The translations under genes were made by a program, and so were the position numbers. The notes under the pieces are model-generated. The model was not told the origin of the DNA and did not search any database. It saw only the letters and a list, made by a program, of their open reading frames with translations. From a virus: 64,000 nt of DNA. Location: positions 1 through 64,000 of IMG/VR virus record IMGVR_UViG_3300025459_000003, one strand, 5' to 3'. This document shows, piece by piece, positions 1,859 to 36,133 of the stretch (positions within the stretch are counted from its first letter, which is position 1; each line of letters starts with the position of its first letter).

Positions 1859-4800
1859 ATGGCACTATTCGGATCGTATGCCCCGCCTGGAGTCTACACG
1901 AGCGTCGTCATCAGCGGAGGGGGGCAGCCCCTCTTCGGCAGCGCCCGCATCCCCGTCATCATCGGGGAAGGGCAGGAGTTCTTCGCCCAGGACAACGTCG
2001 AGCTACATCGCGGCTCCTCGCCCGTGGCGGACGACCAGGTCGTGAACGAGAACATCTCCGACCAGGTGAAGTCCATCACCAACCAGTTCAAGGCCACCTA
2101 CTTCCCCGTGGTCACGGGGGACGGGTCCGGCACGGTGACGGACGACTCGTCCAAGGTGCAGGTCGTGGTGGAGGGGATACCCGCCACCGTCATCTCCCTT
2201 GACGGGGAGACGGGGGCCTTCACCACGCAGGAGCTCGTCACGCCCGGCCAGAACGTCGAGATCACCTACTACTTCAAGAGGACCGACACGCTCGTCCCCA
2301 ACGAGGACCTGTCGGCACAGGTCCCGGCCTTCTCGTCCCTCAAGGTATGGGACTCGACCCATGCCGTCAGCACCATCCTCGGCACCACCCTGCCGGGGGC
2401 CGTGGGCAACGAGATCACCCTGGCCCTGACGGACGACTACCTGAACTCGCCCCCGGGGACCGGCGTGTCCGACGCCCTGGCCGTGAGCGGGGCGGGGACC
2501 GACTCCATCTCCATTGACATCCGCAAGACCGACGGCAGCGTCCGGGACATCGAGGACCTCTACAGCCTCGTCCAGGCCGGGATACCGACCCTGGATGCGG
2601 GCTACCTGACGGCGACCGTCCCGGCCCCCGTCACCACCTCCCCGCCCACCGCCTTCCCGCTCAGCACCATGACGGCGACGCACTTCTCGGGCGGCGCGGG
2701 CCCGAACAGCAACATGGTCTTCAAGGTCAAGCACGTCCCCATCGTGGACGGCAGCAACGGGGGCGTCGTCACCACCGACCCGACCAAGGTCGCCGTGCTC
2801 GTCAATGGGGCAAGTGCCAAGGTCCGGGCGGTCGACGGCGTCCACGGGCTGGTGACTTTGCTCAACCCGGTGACGTACGGCTCCACGCTTGCCGCCACCT
2901 ACTACACCAACACCTACCAGAACACCTACGACCTGCTGCCGGCCAGCAACGTGGCCAGCATCACGGAAGTCGGGCTGGGGCCGGACCGCAGCGACTTCAT
3001 CGAGGACACCGACTTCGTCCTCGGCACCGACGCCAACGGCAACGGGACGATCAACTGGGGGGCCAGCACCACCACGGAGGTCGGCACCTCCACGACCGGC
3101 TACACCCCGTTCGGCCCGGCGCAGATCACCACCGCGCTGGTGGACGAGAAGGTCTACCTCCGCCCGTGCCACGGCTCGGTCAACGGCAGCAACCTGGCCT
3201 TCGTCCTTCCGGACGTGCCGGTCGACGGCAGCGGGCTGTCCCGCCCGACCGACGACCCCAGCAGGATCGCCGTGTACGTCGGGGCCGACCCGGTGTCGGC
3301 CCTCACCGCAGGGGCGGTAAGGGTCGTCTCCCTCTCGGGGAGCACGGGGGCGTTCTCCCTGTACGTCCCGCCGACGGCGGGGCAGGGCGTGTACGCCACC
3401 TACTGGCGCAACACCCTGAACGACCACAGCTACACCGTGGCGGTCAAGAGCCCCGGCATCCCGGGGCAGGGCACCTATTCCATCAAGGACGAGATCGGGC
3501 GCGTCCTGCCCGTGGCGACCAACGGGACCAACATAGTCACCGACACCAACTTCAACACCACCGGCATCGTATGGCCGAGCGCCTTCTCCGACCTCTGGGC
3601 CGAGCCCGGGTCGATTGACGAGGTCGTGACGCTGGCCTTCCAGGACGACGGCCTGTCCAACATCAGCATCCCCGCCACGCAGGCGACGCTGACCGCCCAG
3701 GGGATCGTCTTCACGGCATCGTCCCCCGGGGCGGCCGGGAATTCCGTCCAGGTCGCCTTCGACACCACGGGAAGCGGGGCACCCCTCGTCAACGGGAGCA
3801 AGGTGACGATAAGGGGGTCCATCACCCAGGCCGCCGCGGCGGCGCAGTTCCCCGTGACCGTGTCGGGAATCAGCATACTCGCATCGCTCGCGCCCGGCAA
3901 CACGGGATCCGTCCTGGTGCAGACGGCCGCCCCCCTGAACCTGTCGGACGGGCAGGACGCCGTCACCGAGCCGTACGCCGACCGCTACCTGGTCACGTCC
4001 TCGGCGGCCCCCAAGGGCTCCGCGGGCACGGGGTACCTCGGGCAGACCTACATCGACGCCAGCACGGCGCTCAAGTTCACCATCGTCGACCCGCAGGAGG
4101 CGCTCGGCTACGGCTACACCACGCTTCCCTCCCCGCAGTACGCCTTCCGTCCGGGGGACACGCTGACCTTCGTCATCAGCAGCGAGGCCGTCCGCCACAC
4201 CGGGTCGGCATACTTCCCCTACGGCAACGCGGAGCCGAACAACCTCGTCGCCATCCCGGGCCTCACGACCAAGGTGGCCACGAACTTCGGGGCCAACGTC
4301 GGGGACACCGCCATAATCGACACCTTCAACAAGTCGGGGAACGAGCCGCTGGTGGGTGAGTTCTACTACGTGTCGTTCACGGTCGCCAAGGCCGCCTCCG
4401 ACATGACCATCAAGCTCTACGACACACCGGAGGACGCCTACGCCGTCTACGGGCAGCCCAGCACGGTCAACCGGGTGTCCCTGGGAATCCAGCTCCTCAC
4501 GCAGAACGGGGCCCAGCAGTTCGGGGTCATCCAGGTGCCGAAGCAGGCCGGGTTCAACACGGCCTCGGACGCGGACTTCATCTCCGCCATACAAAGCCTT
4601 GCCGTGGCGCTGCCGGGAAGCACGCAGAAGGCGGCCGTCGTCGTGCCCCTGAGCACGAGCACGTCGGTCCATCAGTTCCTCAGCAGGTTCCTCATCACGC
4701 AGGCGGGCGTCAGGAACAAGGGCGAGGCCATCGGCTTCGTGGGGTACAGCCTCTACACCGACGCCAGCACGGCGCGTGCCAACGCCCGGGCAGTCAAGAA

Positions 4801-5407
4801 CGCCCGCATGATCGCCATCGGGATGCCCGCCGCGGCGGTGGTGCTCACCGACTCCCAGACCGGGGTCGGCATCGAGTACTCCGTGTCGGGCGAGTTCATG
4901 GCGGCGGCGCTGGCGGGCCTCAACCTCAACCCGTCGAACGACGTGGCCACGACGCTGACCGAACAATCCCTCGTCGGGTTCTCCAGGCTGCTCGTCCAGT
5001 ACGACGACACGACCATGAACCTGATGGCGGCCGACGGCCTGGTCTGCCTGACCAACAACAACGGGGCGCTCTTCGTCCGGCACTACAAGAGCACGGACCC
5101 GAGCAACCCCATCACGTCCGAGCCGACCTGCACGACGGTCACGGACTACGTCTGCCAGTTGTTCAGGGCCGACCTCAAGCAGTTCATCGGGCGCAAGCTG
5201 GTGGACGGGCTGACCACGGACATCAGCGTCGTCTGCTACTCCCGGCTGAACTCGCTCATCAACAACCAGATCATCTCCGGGTACAAGGCCCTGAACGTGG
5301 TCGAGGACCCGGACGACCCGACCACGGTGGACGTCACGGTGACGTTCAAGCCCATGTTCTCGTTGCTCTACATCAGCGTGACCTTCACGGTCACGACGAG
5401 CCTGTAA
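1859..5407 (+). CDS. Contractile tail sheath protein
   Basis: 1182 aa; N-terminal YAPPGVY; C-terminal sheath domain (FIGRKL...DPTTVDVTVTFKPMFSLLYISVTF); AAGGAG RBS. Confidence 0.9.
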   Translation: MALFGSYAPPGVYTSVVISGGGQPLFGSARIPVIIGEGQEFFAQDNVELHRGSSPVADDQVVNENISDQVKSITNQFKATYFPVVTGDGSGTVTDDSSKVQVVVEGIPATVISLDGETGAFTTQELVTPGQNVEITYYFKRTDTLVPNEDLSAQVPAFSSLKVWDSTHAVSTILGTTLPGAVGNEITLALTDDYLNSPPGTGVSDALAVSGAGTDSISIDIRKTDGSVRDIEDLYSLVQAGIPTLDAGYLTATVPAPVTTSPPTAFPLSTMTATHFSGGAGPNSNMVFKVKHVPIVDGSNGGVVTTDPTKVAVLVNGASAKVRAVDGVHGLVTLLNPVTYGSTLAATYYTNTYQNTYDLLPASNVASITEVGLGPDRSDFIEDTDFVLGTDANGNGTINWGASTTTEVGTSTTGYTPFGPAQITTALVDEKVYLRPCHGSVNGSNLAFVLPDVPVDGSGLSRPTDDPSRIAVYVGADPVSALTAGAVRVVSLSGSTGAFSLYVPPTAGQGVYATYWRNTLNDHSYTVAVKSPGIPGQGTYSIKDEIGRVLPVATNGTNIVTDTNFNTTGIVWPSAFSDLWAEPGSIDEVVTLAFQDDGLSNISIPATQATLTAQGIVFTASSPGAAGNSVQVAFDTTGSGAPLVNGSKVTIRGSITQAAAAAQFPVTVSGISILASLAPGNTGSVLVQTAAPLNLSDGQDAVTEPYADRYLVTSSAAPKGSAGTGYLGQTYIDASTALKFTIVDPQEALGYGYTTLPSPQYAFRPGDTLTFVISSEAVRHTGSAYFPYGNAEPNNLVAIPGLTTKVATNFGANVGDTAIIDTFNKSGNEPLVGEFYYVSFTVAKAASDMTIKLYDTPEDAYAVYGQPSTVNRVSLGIQLLTQNGAQQFGVIQVPKQAGFNTASDADFISAIQSLAVALPGSTQKAAVVVPLSTSTSVHQFLSRFLITQAGVRNKGEAIGFVGYSLYTDASTARANARAVKNARMIAIGMPAAAVVLTDSQTGVGIEYSVSGEFMAAALAGLNLNPSNDVATTLTEQSLVGFSRLLVQYDDTTMNLMAADGLVCLTNNNGALFVRHYKSTDPSNPITSEPTCTTVTDYVCQLFRADLKQFIGRKLVDGLTTDISVVCYSRLNSLINNQIISGYKALNVVEDPDDPTTVDVTVTFKPMFSLLYISVTFTVTTSL

Positions 5408-8635: not shown

Positions 8636-9004
8636 TTATTGTGTCGAGGTCATGAGCATCTTGTATCTCTTCGACGGATGCTTGGTGAGGAACCCCGTCC
8701 TCCTCCCCTTCTCGTAGGGAATGCGCTCGTCCTTCCACTGCCCCGCCGTGGGGTCGGCTATACTTCCGTCGTCCCTGGCCAGGAACCAGTGGGTCCATCC
8801 CGGGCCGCTCAGGACCACCAGGACGTATCCCCTTTGCCTTCCCCATATGTGGAACAGGGTTTCGGCGGCAAGATAGCAGTGCCCGAAGGTGAAGTGGTCG
8901 CCCGGCTTCCTTTTCTCCAGCCATTCCGGGCTCATCAGGTCGTCCGACAGGGCTTCCTGGACGGCCCGCATGGCGCTTTTCTTGGTCAGGTCCCGTGTGC
9001 TCAT
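8636..9004 (-). CDS. Small protein with a Cys-His-Asp (papain/transglutaminase-like) motif set
   Basis: GHCY...THWFL...DPTAGQ ordering. Confidence 0.5.
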   Translation of the reverse strand: MSTRDLTKKSAMRAVQEALSDDLMSPEWLEKRKPGDHFTFGHCYLAAETLFHIWGRQRGYVLVVLSGPGWTHWFLARDDGSIADPTAGQWKDERIPYEKGRRTGFLTKHPSKRYKMLMTSTQ

Positions 9005-9077: not shown

Positions 9078-12000
9078 ATGGCTTCCAGCTCTCTCTTGCT
9101 CAAGAAGTCCGCTTTGCTCCCAGTTCCCGGAATCGGGGAAGGGGTGGGGGGCATCGACCTCGTCACCAAGGAAAACCTCATAGACGACCCGGGGTACGCC
9201 GCTCACCAGCACCATGCCGACCCGGAGTACGACATGCCGTTCGGCCAGAAGGGGACGGAGGTGGAGGGCACCAAGCACGGATCCGCCAAGCACGCCGACT
9301 CCTCCGTCTGCGTCTGCGGGCACATGTGGCACGAGCACTGGGACAAGGGGGACTTCGGCTGCAAGAGCGAAGGACGCGGCTGCGAATGCAAGGGATTCAA
9401 GGCGAAGGCGGCCTCCCGGCCCTCGGAGCCGTCCTACAGGGCGGCCGAGGTCCTTGCCCATTTCGGCAGGATACGGAAGGGGAGCATCCGCAGGACGGCG
9501 CTGGCCCTCGACCGCATGGCTGCCGAGGACGCCAGGGATTTCGCCCATGAGCCCGTCGAGGAGTTTACCAAGAGGGTGACGCCCGTCAGCCCGCTCCTCA
9601 AGGAGCCGGACCCCGAGACCGCCACGTTCTTCAAGGAGAGCGAGGAGGGCACCGAACGGGGCGGGGACGCCCCGCCCAGCGCCGACCCGGACCTGGTTGC
9701 CTACATAAAAAGCAAGGGCATGGACCCTCGCTGGATTCCGGTCGAGCGCCTGCCCGGCAAGCGGATGAAGGACTACCCCATAACCAGGGCGATCCTGGAA
9801 TGGGAGAAGTCGACGGGGAAGCATTTCGGGGACCCCTCCCTGACCGATGCCGAACGGGAAAGGCTGACGAAATGGGGCGGGGGGAAGAAAGAAAAGGTAG
9901 ATACCATTTCTTTCCAGGAAACGGAGGATTGGGGTATCGTTCCCCTGGACGAGGACATCGGCGTCGCCTTCGACAGGGAGGAGCTCAGGGAGGCGATAAG
10001 AGGAGTCCTGGGCACGCTGACCCCTCGCGAGCAGAAAGTCATCGAAAGGCGGTTCAACCTGGACGGAAGGGGCGGGGCCACCCCTGAGGAAATAGGGAAT
10101 GAGTTTGCGGTTAACAGGGAGCGGATACGCCAGATCGAGGCAAAGGCCCTGCGCAAGCTGCGCCATCCCTCCAGGAGCAGGCGCTTGCGCCCGTTCGTCT
10201 CGGCCCTCCTCAAAAAGGCGGAATGGGATAGTAGACAGGCCGCCGAGGCCATAGGAAAGGTGTTCGTCGGCGAGTGGAACGACATCCCGGACGACGTCAT
10301 TGAGGAGGCTGCCAAGATGGCATCCGGCATCTTGGGGACGGCCTACATATTCTTTTCGCCCGAGGGGGCAAGGAACATTCGGTCGCAAAATGCTGGGTGG
10401 TCCGTAGGCAGCAAGTCGGTTCCCCTACAAGAAGGATCTAAACTGGTGGCAATGGTGGGCACCCCAAAGCCCAAGCAGGCCACCACGAAGTCCTACGGCG
10501 CTGGCACTCCCATCGGCGGGACGGCGAACGGCGTGGGGCAGCCCGCGCCCGGCGACCAGCCCACCCACCCCGCTTCGTTCCAGCAGCCCGCCCAGCAGCC
10601 AGCCCAACAGAGTGCCCAGCACCCAGCCGGGCCCGTGCAGCAGGAACAGCAGCAAACGCAGCAGCAAGGGCGGCAGGGGCGGCCCTACCAACGAGGCCAG
10701 TCCCTGTCGGTCGATCCCAATGCCCCGCCTGGCGTTCCGCAGAACGTCGCCGACCAGGACAGCATGGTCAGCGAGATAGTCAGGCAGCTCCAGGAGAAGA
10801 TGTCGGCCCTAGAGTCGAAGGTGGAAATCCACGAGTCACCCGACCTGCTGCCGCCCCGCACCGAGCTCAGGAAGCACCTCGACCCGTCGCTCGTGGACGA
10901 GGAGGACAGGATTCCCATCCCGGTGAGCAAGGGGGCGGGCAGCGCCGAGGAGGACGACGAGGACGACGAGGACGACAGGGGGCCGATACCCGACCTCGGC
11001 ACCCTGTACGGGAGGCCGATAGAAAAGACGGATTTCCCGGCTCCTTCCGGACCGCAGGTGCATTGCCCCGTTTGCTGGCAGAACCAGACGGATTGGACGG
11101 ACGATGAGATTCGGCGGCATGCCCAGAGTTGTGGGAAGGCCTCGGGGCCGTCCGGGGGTGGGGAGCTTAATGACCTCGTGGAGAGGGGCACCCACGACCG
11201 GTGCCAGGAGCCGGGATGCGGGGCGATAATAAGCAAGCTGTATATGAAAGACCACATGCGGACCTTCCATCCCCATGCCGACCCGGCGTCGTACCTGGAC
11301 CTCACCGACGAGGACAGGAGGTTCCTCCAGGAGATGAGGATACGGGGGGCCAAGAAGGCCTCCGACTGGGATCCCATCGGGGCGAAGAAGCAGTACGACG
11401 AGGCATGCAGGCTGTGGGACGAGGGCAGGCAGAACGATGCGACGGAGGCGCTGCGCTCCTCCGTCCGCTCCAACCCCTACCACGGGCCCGCCCACTTCAG
11501 GCTCGGGGTGGCCCTCGCCCATGAGGGGAACGAGGAGGAGGCGCTCGCCGAGCTGGGGCTGGCGCTCAAGGCAAGGCCCAGGAACACGTGGGCCTACCAT
11601 ACCATCGTGGCGGAGATGGACAAGAAGGGCGACCTGGACGGGCTGCCGCAGTCCGTGAGGAAGTTCATCGGGGACAATATGGTCTCCAAGCAGGCGGGAG
11701 GGGGGCCGACCAAGCGCTGCGGGCCCATCATCATCGATCAGAATGGGTGGCTTACCCCGGAAGGCGACTTCGTTCCCGTAGCAGTGGACAAAAGCCACCT
11801 TGAAGAAGGCTTCGAATCGGCGGTCCGGGTCATTTGCACTCCGCCTTTCGTCGCCTTCGACATCCAAGTAGACTCCCCGAGAGTTCGGGAAGTGGTCAAG
11901 GAGGCCTTGCGCAACAACCCAGGGCTGCAAACCGTGGAAATCGAGATTCAGGGGGTCGAGTTCGAGGACAAGCTCAATCCGGAACAAGCCGAGGAACTCC

Positions 12001-12185
12001 TGGACAGCTACCGCTGGAGGCCCGAGTACCGAAAGAAAAGCAAGGTCGCCGTCCAGACCGAGGAAGGGGTCAACGAGGTGTGCCCGAACTGCCATGGCCA
12101 GAAGACCAAGCCCGTCGACGACCCGGAGGTGGAGGGCGGAAACCTAGTGGAATGCCTGACTTGCGGGGCATTCTTCGCCAAGTAG
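9078..12185 (+). CDS. Polyvalent protein: Zn fingers, RpoD-like sigma-70 region 4, TPR
   Basis: [13 protein letters not shown]...[33 protein letters not shown] (about 9975-10200) closely matches the RpoD region 4 consensus; TPR-like [22 protein letters not shown]; several CxxC/C2H2 motifs. Confidence 0.75.
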
Positions 12186-12222: not shown

Positions 12223-13125
12223 ATGTCGTTCAAGAAGATAGCCCAGGCCGTGCTTTTCGAGCCTACGATGACTTCCTGCGACTGGGGGAGGATGTGGGGG
12301 GATCGCGCCTTCCGCGGGTGCGCCGTCGACAGGGCGCATCCCTTCTGCAAGACCGCGGCCGACCACACCAAGTACCTGCTCAGCCATTGCACCATTATGA
12401 GCTCGGTGGCCTGCGAGTCCGAGCCCAACGACTACCTGATCCGCCCCGCGTCGGCGCATCTCGTTAACAACAACGACGATGCATGGGAGAATTCCGTCCT
12501 CAAGCTGTCCCACAAGAGCTTCGTGGGGGCATTCAACTTCGTCGAGCACTTCCAGAACAGCAAGTATGCGAAGGGGCACGTCATCGACAGCATCCTCCGC
12601 AAGATACACCTCACCCAGGACCCCCGGGACGACGTTTTCTTCGTCGACATCCTCGTGGCGACGGACCTCTCGCACCACAAGCTTGCCGACGACATAAGGA
12701 GCAGGAAGGTCAAGTACCTGTCGATGGGGTGCGTCACCGACCTCGTCATATGCTCCTTCTGCGGGCAGCACGTCACGGACGCGAGCAGCTACTGCCACCA
12801 CCTCCAGTTCAACAAGGGCACGTTCCTGCCCGACGACGACGGGGTGCCGCGCCGCGTGGCGGAGCTCTGCGGGCACAAGACCCTCCCCGGAGGGGGGGTG
12901 AAGTTCGTGGAGGCTAGCTGGGTGCAGACCCCGGCGTTCCCGGGGGCGATGCAGAGGTCCATAGTGGCGGACGAGTGGCTGGGCCCCGCCACCCGCTTCA
13001 CGAGCAGGGTCGAGGCCTCGGGAAAAGAGGCGTTCTCCAAGGCGGCCTCGGAAAGTGGCGACTATTCAAGTCCTTATTTGGGGGAGCTGTTGCTCTCAAG
13101 TGACGACGGAAGGAACCTAAGGTAA
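12223..13125 (+). CDS. Prohead (capsid maturation) protease with Zn-ribbon insert
   Basis: N-x-N-x-D, FVEH, SMGC, CSFCG...CHHL, FVEASWVQTPAFPGA motifs; upstream of scaffold and capsid genes. Confidence 0.75.
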   Translation: MSFKKIAQAVLFEPTMTSCDWGRMWGDRAFRGCAVDRAHPFCKTAADHTKYLLSHCTIMSSVACESEPNDYLIRPASAHLVNNNDDAWENSVLKLSHKSFVGAFNFVEHFQNSKYAKGHVIDSILRKIHLTQDPRDDVFFVDILVATDLSHHKLADDIRSRKVKYLSMGCVTDLVICSFCGQHVTDASSYCHHLQFNKGTFLPDDDGVPRRVAELCGHKTLPGGGVKFVEASWVQTPAFPGAMQRSIVADEWLGPATRFTSRVEASGKEAFSKAASESGDYSSPYLGELLLSSDDGRNLR

Positions 13126-15308
13126 TGGCAAAGCCAAAGGCCGATACGATCATTGCAACCTACAGGCGCAAGCTCGCCGAGCTCGGCGAGCTGGACAACG
13201 AAATCAAGAGCCTGGACATGTCCCTCCCCGAGGGGGAGGGGGAGAAGACGTTCGACTACCTCGCCGAGAAGCGGGGGGAGATCGAGCAGGAAATCCGGGC
13301 CATGAAAGAGAAGGTGGACCTCCTCACCGCGTGGGAGAGGTTCAAGGAGAGCCAGAACTGGTCGGACGAGCTGAAGTCCGAGCTGGACGGACTGGACGAG
13401 GAGATAGGGAACATCGCCACCGGCAAGGGCACGGACCTGGTGGAGGCTGGCGGGAACCTGGTCCCCGAAACGCCGCCCGCGCCTGCGGGAGCCAAGCCAG
13501 ACGTGCCGGAAGCGCCCCCGGCCGAGGGGGAGGGAGTCCCTCCCGAAACCCCCCCGGAAGGGGCATCGCCAAGCGAACCATCGGCGGGGGCCGCGCCCCC
13601 GTCTGAAGCGCCCCCGCCCGCCCCGGCAGGGGCACCGTCCGCCTCCCTAGCGGGGGAGCCGGTGCAGGCCAGCAAGGAAAGCAACTACCAAACTCAAGAT
13701 AAGAAGGGAAATTGTCCGCCCGAAAAGGGGACGAAGCAGAGAGGAAGAGCCATGGCAAATGAAAAGAAGTCTTCGCTGAAGGAAAAGCTCGCCGAGATGA
13801 AGGTCAGCAGGGAGGCGATCACCCGGGAGGCCAAGACCCGCGTCGCCTGCGCCTGGACCATCGCCAAGACGATGCTGCCGGGGGCCCCGCCCGAAACGCA
13901 GCAAACGTTCGCGGCGTCGCTGCTCCAGAACAAGACCTGCGCGCTCAAGGCGGCCCTGCGCCAGACGGCGATCAACGCCCACTACACCAAGGTGGCGGAA
14001 ACGCTCAAGGAGGTCCACAAGGTCGAGATGAACGACCTACTTGAGAAGCCCGAAGTCCTCGCGAAGGAAAAGAGCGCCGTCAAGGCTGAGGTCCGGGGCG
14101 AGGCGAAGAACGCCGCCCCCGCCGAGAAGACGGCCGACGACCGCAAGGACGCCGGACCCCAGACGCCGACCTACAACGACGGTCGCGGATGCGGGGGAGG
14201 GACGCACAGCGAGCCGAAGGAGCTCGACGCCTCCAAGGCCGGGGAGCGCCCCGGGGCCGGGGAACGTCCCGGCGACACCGTGGACCTGTCGGAAGGCAAG
14301 TCCGCCTCCGGGAAGAAGGCGGCGGCATGTGCCGAGTGCAAGCCTGGCAAGCCGTGCCCGAAGTGCTCCAAGGAAGCCAACGCCAAGAAGGCGGACGACC
14401 CCGATGCAGGGCTCCACGGGGAGGATGCCGCCCCGCCAGCAGGTACCGCCCCGCCAACCGAGGCCGCCCCACCGGTCGAAGCGCCGCCGGCCGGCGACGC
14501 AGGCCTTCCCGGGCCCGGGCCGGAAGCCCCCGCCGCCGAGATGGTGACGGAGGAGAAGATCAAGGACCTCGGGGAGAAGGCCGACGAGCTGGCGGACGAA
14601 ATCCACCAGCTTGAGGAAGCCGTCGAGAAGGAAGAAAAAGAAGGCGAGGAGGTCCCCAAGGGCGTCGTCGAGAACGAGGGCGACGAGCTTGAGGCCGGAC
14701 TGCCCGAAGGCGAGGGCCAGGAGCTCAAGCTGGAGGAAATCTTCAACGACGAGGAGATGGGAGAGAAGGCCGCCGCCCTGGCCAACGAAGGCGATCCCGG
14801 GGGGACGGACTTCTTCGCCCCGTCCGCGGCCGCCGAGATGGAGGCCTCGCTGGAGGACGGCGACGGCATGGGCACCATCAGCGACATGTTCAACAGGCAG
14901 GGATCGGACGACGACCCATTGGCCGCCCTGATGACGGTCAAGTCCGCCGCCGAAGTGGCGGGGATCAGCGTCGTTCCCAGCTACACTGGGGAGGCGGCAA
15001 AGCACTTCGAACAGAACGAGGCCCCCAAGGAGACCCGCAATACCTCCAGCGACCACGAGGACGACCTCTGGGCCGAGGTGATACCGGATGGGAAGCCCGA
15101 GGAGCAGGGGGCCAAGCGGACCCCGCAGGACGCGACCAACGAACTGAAGCCCCCGAAGGAGGCTTCCGCCAAGGAGGGGGAGAAGAAGGCCGCCGCACCG
15201 GCAGCGCCCCCGACCCTGAAGAGAATCAAGCCGGTCATCGCCTCCGACAAGGAGCCGCCGCGCATCAACGTGGCCGCGGCCCTGTTCGCCGACGATTTCG
15301 AAGGATAG
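13125..15308 (+). CDS. Capsid scaffolding protein
   Basis: Acidic, coiled-coil and low-complexity 727 aa protein between protease and capsid genes; possible internal start at 13752. Confidence 0.65.
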   Translation: MAKPKADTIIATYRRKLAELGELDNEIKSLDMSLPEGEGEKTFDYLAEKRGEIEQEIRAMKEKVDLLTAWERFKESQNWSDELKSELDGLDEEIGNIATGKGTDLVEAGGNLVPETPPAPAGAKPDVPEAPPAEGEGVPPETPPEGASPSEPSAGAAPPSEAPPPAPAGAPSASLAGEPVQASKESNYQTQDKKGNCPPEKGTKQRGRAMANEKKSSLKEKLAEMKVSREAITREAKTRVACAWTIAKTMLPGAPPETQQTFAASLLQNKTCALKAALRQTAINAHYTKVAETLKEVHKVEMNDLLEKPEVLAKEKSAVKAEVRGEAKNAAPAEKTADDRKDAGPQTPTYNDGRGCGGGTHSEPKELDASKAGERPGAGERPGDTVDLSEGKSASGKKAAACAECKPGKPCPKCSKEANAKKADDPDAGLHGEDAAPPAGTAPPTEAAPPVEAPPAGDAGLPGPGPEAPAAEMVTEEKIKDLGEKADELADEIHQLEEAVEKEEKEGEEVPKGVVENEGDELEAGLPEGEGQELKLEEIFNDEEMGEKAAALANEGDPGGTDFFAPSAAAEMEASLEDGDGMGTISDMFNRQGSDDDPLAALMTVKSAAEVAGISVVPSYTGEAAKHFEQNEAPKETRNTSSDHEDDLWAEVIPDGKPEEQGAKRTPQDATNELKPPKEASAKEGEKKAAAPAAPPTLKRIKPVIASDKEPPRINVAAALFADDFEG

Positions 15309-16195: not shown

Positions 16196-17197
16196 ATGGC
16201 AAACCTCAGCCGCACACAGCAGCAGACCGCTATGATCGGTCAGTTGCTGAAGACCGCAGGAGGCCGCCAGAAGCTGGCCGCCTCGCTCGGACCGTCTCTC
16301 CGCAGGCGGCGTGACTACATGAGCATCGCACGCAAGGCGCTCATGGTCGAAACGCTGCCGGACGGCGCTCTGCCCATCTACGACAAGGAATTCGACACCG
16401 CGGCCCAGACCGTGGGCTCCACCCCCGGTGGGTCCTTCGTCGAAGCCTTCGTCGTGGGCGAGGAGGGCGGGGATATCGTCAGGGTCACCAAGCCCAAGAG
16501 GGTCACGGTGCCCACTTTCGAAATCGTTTCCAACCCGATGATCCCGATCTCCCAGATCAAGGAGCGTCGGTTCGATTTGGTCGCCCGTGCCCTTAACCTG
16601 GCGAAGGCCGAGGTTGGGGCCGCCGAGGACGGCTACGTGTTCGGCTTGTTCGACGCCGTAGCAGCCTCCGCGAACACGGCAGTGGCCGCGGACAACCTAG
16701 CGAGGAGTGGAAGCGGCACGTTCGACCCCATCTACAACGGCGACATCGCCATCAACGCCCCCATCGACCTCAACTCGATGGCGGACGGCTTCGGGCAGGT
16801 GCAACGGCACGACCTCTCGGTCGCGTTCTGCTTCTTCAACCCGAGGGACTACGTCGACCTGCTCAAATGGACCCAGCAGAATATTGACAGGGAAACCCAG
16901 CGCAAACTGCTCAAAACAGGAGTGATGGGCTATCTGTGGGGGGCCACGCTCCTCCAGTCCCGTAAGGTCGGTTACGGCTGCGTGTACATCCTGGCGGACG
17001 CCGAGTTCCTGGGCGTCATCCCGGAGCGCATCCCGCTGACCGTCATGTCCGCCGACCGTCCCGACCTGCGCCAGATCGGCTTCTCGATCTTCGAGAACCT
17101 CGGCTTCCTGGTCTTCAACCCGTCAGGCGTCCAGCGCCTGACCATCAACGGCAGGTACGAAGCGTTCGTCGCCAACCAGAACGTCGGCGAGAACTAG
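16196..17197 (+). CDS. Major capsid protein (HK97 fold)
   Basis: 333 aa; KRVTVPTFEIVSNPMI...AKAEVGAAEDGYVF, F(N)PRDY, IGFSIFENLGFLVFNP; canonical position; strong RBS; terminator follows. Confidence 0.85.
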   Translation: MANLSRTQQQTAMIGQLLKTAGGRQKLAASLGPSLRRRRDYMSIARKALMVETLPDGALPIYDKEFDTAAQTVGSTPGGSFVEAFVVGEEGGDIVRVTKPKRVTVPTFEIVSNPMIPISQIKERRFDLVARALNLAKAEVGAAEDGYVFGLFDAVAASANTAVAADNLARSGSGTFDPIYNGDIAINAPIDLNSMADGFGQVQRHDLSVAFCFFNPRDYVDLLKWTQQNIDRETQRKLLKTGVMGYLWGATLLQSRKVGYGCVYILADAEFLGVIPERIPLTVMSADRPDLRQIGFSIFENLGFLVFNPSGVQRLTINGRYEAFVANQNVGEN

Positions 17198-29535: not shown

Positions 29536-29570
29536 ATTATACATCGGGATACATCAAATTTCTAGGGATT
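29536..29570 (-). promoter_or_regulatory. Phage early promoter AATCCC-N23-TATAAT
   Basis: AATCCC tagaaatttgatgtatcccgatg TATAAT; one of six copies with identical spacing. Confidence 0.75.
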
Positions 29571-31787: not shown

Positions 31788-31838
31788 GTTTCCTCCCGCC
31801 TATAGTATACACCGGGCTACACGAAATTCTTAGGGATT
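31788..31838 (-). promoter_or_regulatory. Early promoter + RBS cassette (copy A)
   Basis: AATCCC-N23-TATACT then GGCGGGAGGAAAC; 31788-31828 is identical (41 bp) to 34658-34698. Confidence 0.8.
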
Positions 31839-33641: not shown

Positions 33642-33676
33642 ATTATACACGAGGATACACGAAATTTCTAGGGATT
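33642..33676 (-). promoter_or_regulatory. Phage early promoter AATCCC-N23-TATAAT
   Basis: AATCCC tagaaatttcgtgtatcctcgtg TATAAT. Confidence 0.75.
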
Positions 33677-34657: not shown

Positions 34658-34708
34658 GTTTCCTCCCGCCTATAGTATACACCGGGCTACACGAAATTTC
34701 CGGGGATT
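34658..34708 (-). promoter_or_regulatory. Early promoter + RBS cassette (copy B)
   Basis: AATCCC-N23-TATACT; 41-bp identity with copy A. Confidence 0.8.
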
Positions 34709-36098: not shown

Positions 36099-36133
36099 AT
36101 TATACCTCCGATGGCCCCGTTTTTCCAGGGATT
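36099..36133 (-). promoter_or_regulatory. Phage early promoter AATCCC-N23-TATAAT
   Basis: AATCCC tggaaaaacggggccatcggagg TATAAT; back-to-back with the terminase late promoter. Confidence 0.7.

Follow-up and report, generated by a model that had tools for sequence, protein, structure and literature searches.

RNA polymerase-modifying enzymes are known among the proteins that phages inject, and structures of isolated sigma region 4 are available in complex with -35 DNA (1ku7) and with partner proteins (1tlh, 2p7v and 4g6d). The phage factors that act on region 4 or on the beta-flap of the polymerase include AsiA/MotA and gp33 of T4, gp39 of a Thermus phage and ORF67 of Staphylococcus aureus phage G1, all of which are synthesized once infection has begun and have folds unrelated to that of region 4 (PMC2988021, PMC6755090). 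LtrA, in which the fold is distantly region 4-like, is also made after infection. Here, we describe a domain that would be a close mimic of region 4, possibly pre-made in the virion, and that is encoded in the middle of a 1035-residue open reading frame (ORF), called the mosaic ORF below. It lies in the first 64 kb (64,000 nucleotides; the window) of the viral contig IMGVR_UViG_3300025459_000003, which is linear, 157,656 bp long and 62% G+C. The target surface and the loss or redirection of -35 recognition that are proposed for it are the same as for LtrA and for the factors that act on region 4 or the flap (PMC6755090, PMC2988021, PMC3753634).

The segment at 9975–10220, which a preliminary description had taken for a near-canonical housekeeping sigma region 4, corresponds to residues 300–381 of the mosaic ORF, which is uninterrupted. 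The string quoted there as region 4 is residues 347–367, and the LLKKA that closes the segment is residues 377–381. Residues 310–363 match the full length of the Pfam profile Sigma70_r4 (PF04545) with an E-value of 1.6e-15 and 56.8 bits, the cut-off being 24.1, and residues 300–374 match positions 555–629 of 631 in the NCBIfam RpoD equivalog PRK05658 (E 4.6e-28), such that the match reaches the natural C-terminus of RpoD. When PDB was searched with phmmer, the same residues aligned to residues 537–611 of Escherichia coli sigma70 (4jk1_X), an offset of +237. The recognition helix is identical to sigma70 residues 584–600, and identity includes R584, E585, R586, R588, Q589, K593, R596, K597, R599 and H600, the residues with which sigma70 reads the -35 hexamer and those of its activator-contact patch. 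An AlphaFold2 (AF2) model built from an alignment of region 4 sequences contains the four expected helices, with predicted local distance difference test (pLDDT) values of 93–98 over residues 294–373. Using Foldseek, this model superimposed on region 4 of sigma70 or sigmaA with a root-mean-square deviation of 1.2–1.9 Å over 84–86 columns, and template modelling (TM) scores of 0.72–0.78 were obtained against chimeras of region 4 and the beta-flap tip.

The likeness to region 4 of the primary sigma factor (approximately residues 537–611 of E. coli sigma70) is thus one of hidden Markov model (HMM) match, of fold, and of an identical recognition helix and basic patch, and the assignment to region 4 is upheld. 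The wording near-canonical holds for the recognition helix; it does not hold for the whole domain, which is just 60–70% identical to any RpoD found (best identity 60–65% in one search and no greater than 70% in others, across 5.8 billion and 1.84 billion proteins and the JGI metagenomes). Those RpoD matches that carry names include Terriglobia and Pyrinomonadaceae. RpoD-like sequence begins at approximately residue 283, and hence part of the linker that precedes region 4.1 is included. The pattern IRQIEAKA, universal among RpoDs, led a metagenome scan to return mainly RpoDs.

In contrast to RpoD, the phage cassette is without regions 1.1–3, lies in the middle of an otherwise unrelated protein and continues into another predicted helix. 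Neither Sigma70_r2 nor Sigma70_r3 was matched in the 1035-residue protein even at an E-value of 10, and Sigma70_r2 was not matched anywhere in the 157,656-bp contig, in agreement with the earlier statement that there is no recognisable region 2. A hidden region 2 or 3 in the N-terminal 300 residues was considered and rejected, as there is no HMM signal and no fitting fold in what was a poor model. The full-length model (mean pLDDT 46, hence of low confidence) is without a region 2-like bundle, and the ESM Atlas returned no usable result for residues 1–250. Because region 4 is present while regions 2 and 3 are undetectable, the protein is, judged from its sequence, not a sigma factor but a carrier of region 4 alone.

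When 1.84 billion representative proteins were searched with the mosaic protein, one true homologue that shares 93% identity (P0001) and a further nine (P0002–P0010) that share 42–58% were recovered, and a scan of IMG/VR yielded 26 related loci, on viral contigs, that include a homologue. Members of this family differ from one another by whole cassettes, the majority of them zinc ribbons or fingers, that lie between framework elements. The architecture is one of swappable cassettes, in which the leader (SPLLKK..LP.PGGGVGG.DK at the extreme N-terminus), framework motifs such as KSYGxGTPxGG and the C-terminal zinc ribbon are conserved and the cassettes between them are exchanged. Residues 1–247 are common to the mosaic head-protein family and residues 249–282 match nothing. 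Using tblastn, no counterpart of the region 4 segment was found in any of the 26 related viral loci (L005–L030), and the matches other than full RpoDs listed from the search of 5.8 billion proteins with this segment were the protein itself, which is represented there by 8 members on 40 contigs, and P0001. On these comparisons, region 4 is a lineage-specific cassette within the family. No paralogues of the cassettes were found elsewhere in the contig. The G+C content at third codon positions (GC3) is 0.74 in the region 4 cassette (residues 249–395), 0.74 in the cassette at residues 875–990 and 0.72 in that at residues 380–467, compared with 0.84–0.93 in the framework, 0.87 in the capsid protein gene and 0.87–0.95 in the core structural genes, and the lower values of the cassettes fit later acquisition.

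The mosaic protein and P0001 represent two groups of haplotypes that share at least 92% identity and the commonest sequences of which were seen on 40 and 17 contigs. Every full-length member of both groups retains region 4. The cassette at residues 380–466 is confined to one group, and that at residues 875–990 occurs in one group and in one member of the other. The retention of region 4 argues mildly, on sequence grounds, for a function.

Polyvalent proteins (Iyer et al. 2017, PMC5512222) also combine many unrelated modules, are located among head genes and undergo rapid domain shuffling. Their presumed packaging makes these multi-domain effectors a precedent for the mosaic protein. None of their hallmark domains (ArdC-N, MuF, ART, methylase, peptidase and others) was found in the mosaic ORF, the Pfam matches being limited to Sigma70_r4 and tetratricopeptide repeats (TPR). 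Weak PARP and GNAT matches lie in P0015, which shares one cassette, and not in the mosaic ORF. The survey of polyvalent proteins contains the word sigma 0 times (PMC5512222).

As first described, the gene lies among head genes. The tail sheath gene is upstream, and the genes for the prohead protease, a scaffold-like protein and the major head protein are downstream. The order sheath, ejection-like protein, structural protein, mosaic protein, protease, scaffold, decoration protein and capsid protein is kept in the 26 related loci wherever these genes are in range. The slot is fixed, in that the homologue lies between the gene for the 230-residue structural protein and the block from protease to capsid wherever the flanks are in range, and in all related loci that extend as far as the protease gene, this gene adjoins the homologue. 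As the major head protein resembles those of Tunturi_5 (69% identity) and Bacillus phage G (34% identity), the source is assigned, by sequence, to the jumbo phages of the Tunturi_5 and phage G type. Tunturi_5 is a 309-kb jumbo myovirus of Tunturiibacter, an acidobacterium (PMC11924767), and the host of the source phage is probably also a member of the Acidobacteriota. The protease is 29% identical to gp19 of phage G, and it and the capsid protein alone are shared with phage G; a sequence search of PDB with the protease gave no match and, hence, no protease family. A homologue of the mosaic ORF in Tunturi_5 was sought and rejected, as the slot there is occupied by an unrelated 169-residue gene with a weak resemblance to the leader over 33 residues (E 0.077).

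Possible signs of proteolytic processing come from the borders of the cassettes. Compared with P0001, the mosaic protein differs by clean block deletions that end at LL/KKA (380/381), KPK/QA (467/468), SKQ/AG (873) and KSK/VA (989), the slash within each motif marking the border, and the P0001 haplotype has lost the block between the first two of these. Across the family, a K/R-x-A lies within 5 residues of the border of a large insertion or deletion in 266 of 1076 cases, against 160 +/- 11 at random, though the pairs compared are not independent. The motif LLK[KTSQ][SAG] occurs six times in 145 ORFs, where 0.69 are expected. The mosaic protein has two of these copies, at the N-terminus and directly after region 4, and the capsid protein has another two, of which one falls in its conserved N-terminus. 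The K-x-A borders, the LLK-x-A motif shared with the capsid protein and the low GC3 of the cassettes fit a cargo polyprotein cut by the protease. The word polyprotein in the preliminary description gains partial support from these borders, from the motif LLK[KT][SA] common to the capsid protein and from the adjacent protease, while the claim that region 4 would stand alone does not survive: there is no K-x-A between approximately residue 148 and residue 380, and a released piece that includes region 4 would therefore be approximately 230–270 residues long and not a free domain of 80 residues.

Cleavage by the proteases of T4 and of phiKZ-like phages follows glutamate, whereas the candidate motif here is K-x-A; there is also no sequence relation to the head proteins of those phages, and the proposed cargo is a mimic of a host-factor domain rather than an enzyme. 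Head proteins that are processed by the protease and ejected have precedent in SPN3US (PMC10052503) and T4 (PMC9026906). The mosaic ORF resembles the T4 internal proteins and Alt, and the ejection proteins of phiKZ and SPN3US (including the virion RNA polymerase), in its position beside the protease and scaffold genes, in the N-terminal leader, in a motif shared with the capsid protein and in the proposed action on transcription at entry (PMC10052503, PMC9026906). A multi-omics paper on phage G states no cleavage motif. A further sequence, [ED]D..FL..M.I..(A/S).K (e.g. DKDFLKGMGIKGSKTA), is found at cassette borders in up to five repeats per protein (L020:8983-13110), and may act as a signal for the protease or for targeting.

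The domain is equally close to RpoDs and to a phage family of proteins in which an N-terminal XRE-like helix-turn-helix (HTH) is joined by a linker to region 4, without region 2 (alignment A2). These HTH-region 4 proteins of approximately 200–355 residues (P0039, P0040, P0047, P0048, P0059, P0082, P0088, P0107, P0116, P0131 and P0144) are present in at least 476 confirmed stretches of IMG/VR (loci including L031–L110), beside genes for DNA polymerase, helicase, recombination and RusA-like proteins. No full-length member was found in GenBank phage records, and PHROGs has no group of their own, the match being only to the region 4 part of a general sigma family. Some members are labelled 'sigma-70 family sigma factor' by their sources. 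Two metagenomic proteins, P0038 (351 residues) and P0046 (213 residues), have two region 4 domains in tandem, again without region 2.

In a maximum-likelihood tree built with IQ-TREE, the domains of the mosaic protein and P0001 fall inside a clade of nine of the eleven HTH-region 4 proteins (support 96/92), with P0040, P0047 and P0107 as neighbours. In common with this family, the cassette has a nested region 4, lacks region 2 and includes IERRFxLxG and RLRPF (VLxxRFG and LRxFL in RpoDs). Unlike the family members, which are small and free-standing and lie in early or replication neighbourhoods, the mosaic ORF includes the region 4 part only, within a head-module protein. No match to the XRE-like HTH (..RxxNN.L..) was found before approximately residue 283, using Pfam and the full-length search of 1.84 billion proteins, with no direct alignment made. 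Descent of the domain from the phage HTH-region 4 family is probable on these data, though not certain. The phylogeny against host RpoD that the preliminary description had proposed did not bear out a recent capture from a host rpoD, and this origin is rejected because identities to RpoDs do not exceed 70% and the domain groups in the tree with the phage-borne HTH-region 4 proteins.

The promoters of the phage are relevant to what a region 4 mimic might do. The sequence AATCCC-N23-TATAMT occurs five times in the window, where 0.14 are expected, a count that 0 of 100 shuffles reached, and 10 times in the contig; GGAGG and a start codon lie downstream of every copy. The hexamers in the -35 slot (TAGAAA, TAAGAA, CGGAAA, TGGAAA and others) match TTGACA at between one and five of six positions and are not conserved, and the conserved hexamer is displaced upstream by 6 bp from where a -35 hexamer would lie. 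These counts indicate that the promoters are real and without a conserved -35, and the earlier observation that phage promoters have good -10 boxes and no conserved -35 stands. A canonical TGn extended -10 was considered and rejected, as the dinucleotide immediately before TATAMT is TG at 6 of the 10 sites and GG at the remaining 4. As the 157-kb contig, which is approximately half of the genome, yielded no gene for a phage RNA polymerase, the phage probably uses the polymerase of its host.

We place at roughly 40% the probability that the mosaic protein is cargo of the head interior, trimmed by the protease, from which a piece with region 4 is carried into the cell along with the DNA and there engages the partners of the host region 4. 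The protein would enter the prohead, be trimmed there by the adjacent prohead protease at the LLK-x-A or K-x-A junctions, and leave with the DNA, in pieces, at infection. The piece that includes region 4 would run from approximately residue 112 or 149 to residue 380, retaining the residues with which sigma70 reads DNA and contacts activators, and would engage the beta-flap tip of RNA polymerase, -35 DNA or the proteins that dock on region 4. Host transcription that depends on a -35 would be disturbed or redirected, while the AATCCC-N23-TATAMT promoters would need no -35 hexamer.

A number of points weigh against this cargo reading. As no K-x-A lies just upstream of region 4, release of a small free domain is unlikely. 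Region 4 is absent from all 26 relatives and, hence, is not needed for the core role of the family, and no cultivated phage carries the cassette. When constraint was judged from protein-level variation between the haplotype groups, substitutions were found in 7 of the 75 columns of region 4, a density that is not reduced relative to the remainder of the protein; one of them is R347K, at the position of R584 of sigma70, a DNA-contact residue (the groups also differ at P336F). That no extra constraint is seen speaks mildly against a demanding function. The non-canonical spacing of TG in the AATCCC-N23-TATAMT promoters means that their independence from region 4 is assumed, the tree is based on 80 columns and has long branches, and the contig is approximately 49% complete according to CheckV, such that only about half of the genome is covered. 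Finally, by analogy with the T4 internal proteins, the copies delivered by a virion would probably be few relative to the promoters and polymerases of the cell. By the same analogy, a pure titration decoy supplied by the virion alone looks quantitatively weak, and targeting or mimicry on the few polymerases at the entering DNA is more plausible than titration.

The alternative that survives best, which we consider somewhat unlikely, is that region 4 is one more HTH in a generic DNA-binding cassette that holds, organizes or escorts the genome and has no specific action on RNA polymerase. The other cassettes of the homologues, being mostly zinc ribbons and fingers, suggest a family that collects nucleic acid-binding modules, and the HTH domains that occur, though rarely, in packaged polyvalent proteins are presumed to bind double-stranded DNA (PMC5512222). 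The unreduced substitution density and the variation at R347K also suit a plain binder. However, such a binder would have no need of the basic patch for activators and partners (the equivalents of K593–H600), which is fully kept, nor of the RpoD-like segment upstream of region 4.1.

It is quite unlikely, in our view, that the protein is not packaged and acts in the cytoplasm as a late regulator or assembly factor, the region 4 of which, late in infection, shuts off -35-dependent promoters of the host or of earlier phage genes, for example, or activates in the manner of LtrA, with the location of the gene reflecting the timing of its expression. The LtrA family offers a precedent of phage late activators that contain a Sigma70_r4-like domain (PMC3753634), the free-standing HTH-region 4 relatives, found in early or replication-type surroundings, look like regulators, and the divergent minus-strand gene that splits the mosaic ORF from the structural genes upstream makes a promoter of its own probable. 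Though this is so, no promoter was identified upstream of the ORF, and a leader-bearing, cassette-swapping ORF fixed upstream of the protease and scaffold genes (in the 26 loci, where in range) is typical of proteins of the head interior. That region 4 is a neutral passenger, brought into a tolerant linker by illegitimate recombination and as yet without function, is improbable: its absence from the 26 related contigs, the low GC3, the unreduced substitution density and the coming and going of cassettes between proteins at least 92% identical would allow it, but the domain is intact, in frame and confidently predicted to fold, and has kept its key residues in two haplotype groups despite the turnover of the cassettes that flank it.

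If the cargo reading is true, a region 4 mimic carried in the head would be a different route to the disarming of sigma region 4, acting at time zero. No earlier case of a region 4 mimic in head-module cargo was found in the open-access literature, including 183 mentions of polyvalent proteins in PMC5512222. The abundant, unannotated HTH-region 4 family implies that use of region 4 by phages independently of region 2 is common. On the broadest view, phage proteins with region 4 and without region 2 would make up an extensive and as yet undescribed class of transcription hijackers. The widest form of the proposal, in which the capsid is preloaded with a mimic that is cut from its cargo and disables or redirects -35 transcription of the host before any phage gene is expressed, and in which such a class of hijackers exists, is rather unlikely as a whole. 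The cassette-swapping head proteins of jumbo phages of the acidobacterial type may also show how capsid cargo evolves. The coordinates of the region 4 cassette, the mosaic ORF and its surroundings are listed in Table 1.

Table 1. Features of the region 4 cassette, the mosaic ORF, the surrounding head gene block and the promoter-like sites (positions refer to the contig, of which the window is positions 1–64,000)
Feature	Position	Strand	Basis or remarks
Tail sheath	1859–5407		First in block order upstream of the mosaic ORF
616-residue protein			After the sheath; match to Tunturi_5 gp328 at the C-terminus (depositors' label, 'DNA ejection protein')
230-residue structural protein			Between the 616-residue protein and the minus-strand gene
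122-residue gene	8636–9004	-	phrog_12251, function not known; follows the structural gene and precedes the mosaic ORF
Mosaic ORF, 1035 residues, carries the region 4 cassette	9078–12185	+	ORF list; homologues P0001–P0010
Conserved N-terminal leader, residues 1–75	9078–9302	+	All full-length members; contains LLKKS; candidate targeting or propeptide region
Lineage-specific cassette, residues 249–395	9822–10262	+	No counterpart in the other members compared (BLASTP coverage map)
RpoD-type sigma region 4 (4.1 and 4.2), residues 300–374	9975–10199	+	Pfam, NCBIfam, phmmer against PDB, AF2, Foldseek
LLKKA junction directly after region 4	10206–10220	+	Candidate protease site; edge of the P0001 deletion
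Optional cassette, residues 380–467	10215–10478	+	Haplotype group A only; GC3 0.72
Linker motif, one copy of [ED]D..FL..M.I..(A/S).K	11310–11363	+	Five copies in the L020 homologue
TPR module (framework)	11394–11612	+	Pfam TPR_16, TPR_19 and TPR_2; AF2 pLDDT 85–91
Optional globular cassette, residues 875–990	11700–12047	+	Common to P0024 (1385 residues) and P0015 (2075 residues)
C-terminal zinc ribbon, CPNC...CLTC	12081–12167	+	Invariant alignment columns; AF2 pLDDT 65–78
Prohead (head maturation) protease	12223–13125	+	phrog_18299, 7.7e-15; directly downstream of the mosaic ORF
Scaffold-like acidic Ala/Pro-rich protein	13125–15308	+	Position and composition; kept in related loci that reach it
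Decoration-like protein			Between the scaffold-like protein and the major head protein
Major head protein, LLKTAGG at residues 17–23	16196–17197	+	phrog_2522, 1.4e-41; conserved N-terminus
AATCCC-N23-TATAMT promoter-like sites	29536–29570, 31804–31838, 33642–33676, 34674–34708, 36099–36133	-	Motif count
Further AATCCC-N23-TATAMT sites in the contig	64666, 95637, 125008, 143074, 143389		

Among the TPR matches, only TPR_19 clears its curated cut-off of 25 bits, with 26.2 bits in a scan restricted to the C-terminal part. The label 'DNA ejection protein' of the Tunturi_5 neighbour has no backing in PHROGs. The cassette at residues 875–990 is 54–60% identical to those in P0015 and P0024, which are giant multi-domain proteins in which it is also flanked by K-[ST]-A, and weak PARP, GNAT and nucleotidyltransferase matches were seen in the giant proteins that share it. 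Of the 26 related loci, 11 have the minus-strand gene in the same slot, at 50–59% identity to that upstream of the mosaic ORF; several of the remaining loci end before this slot.

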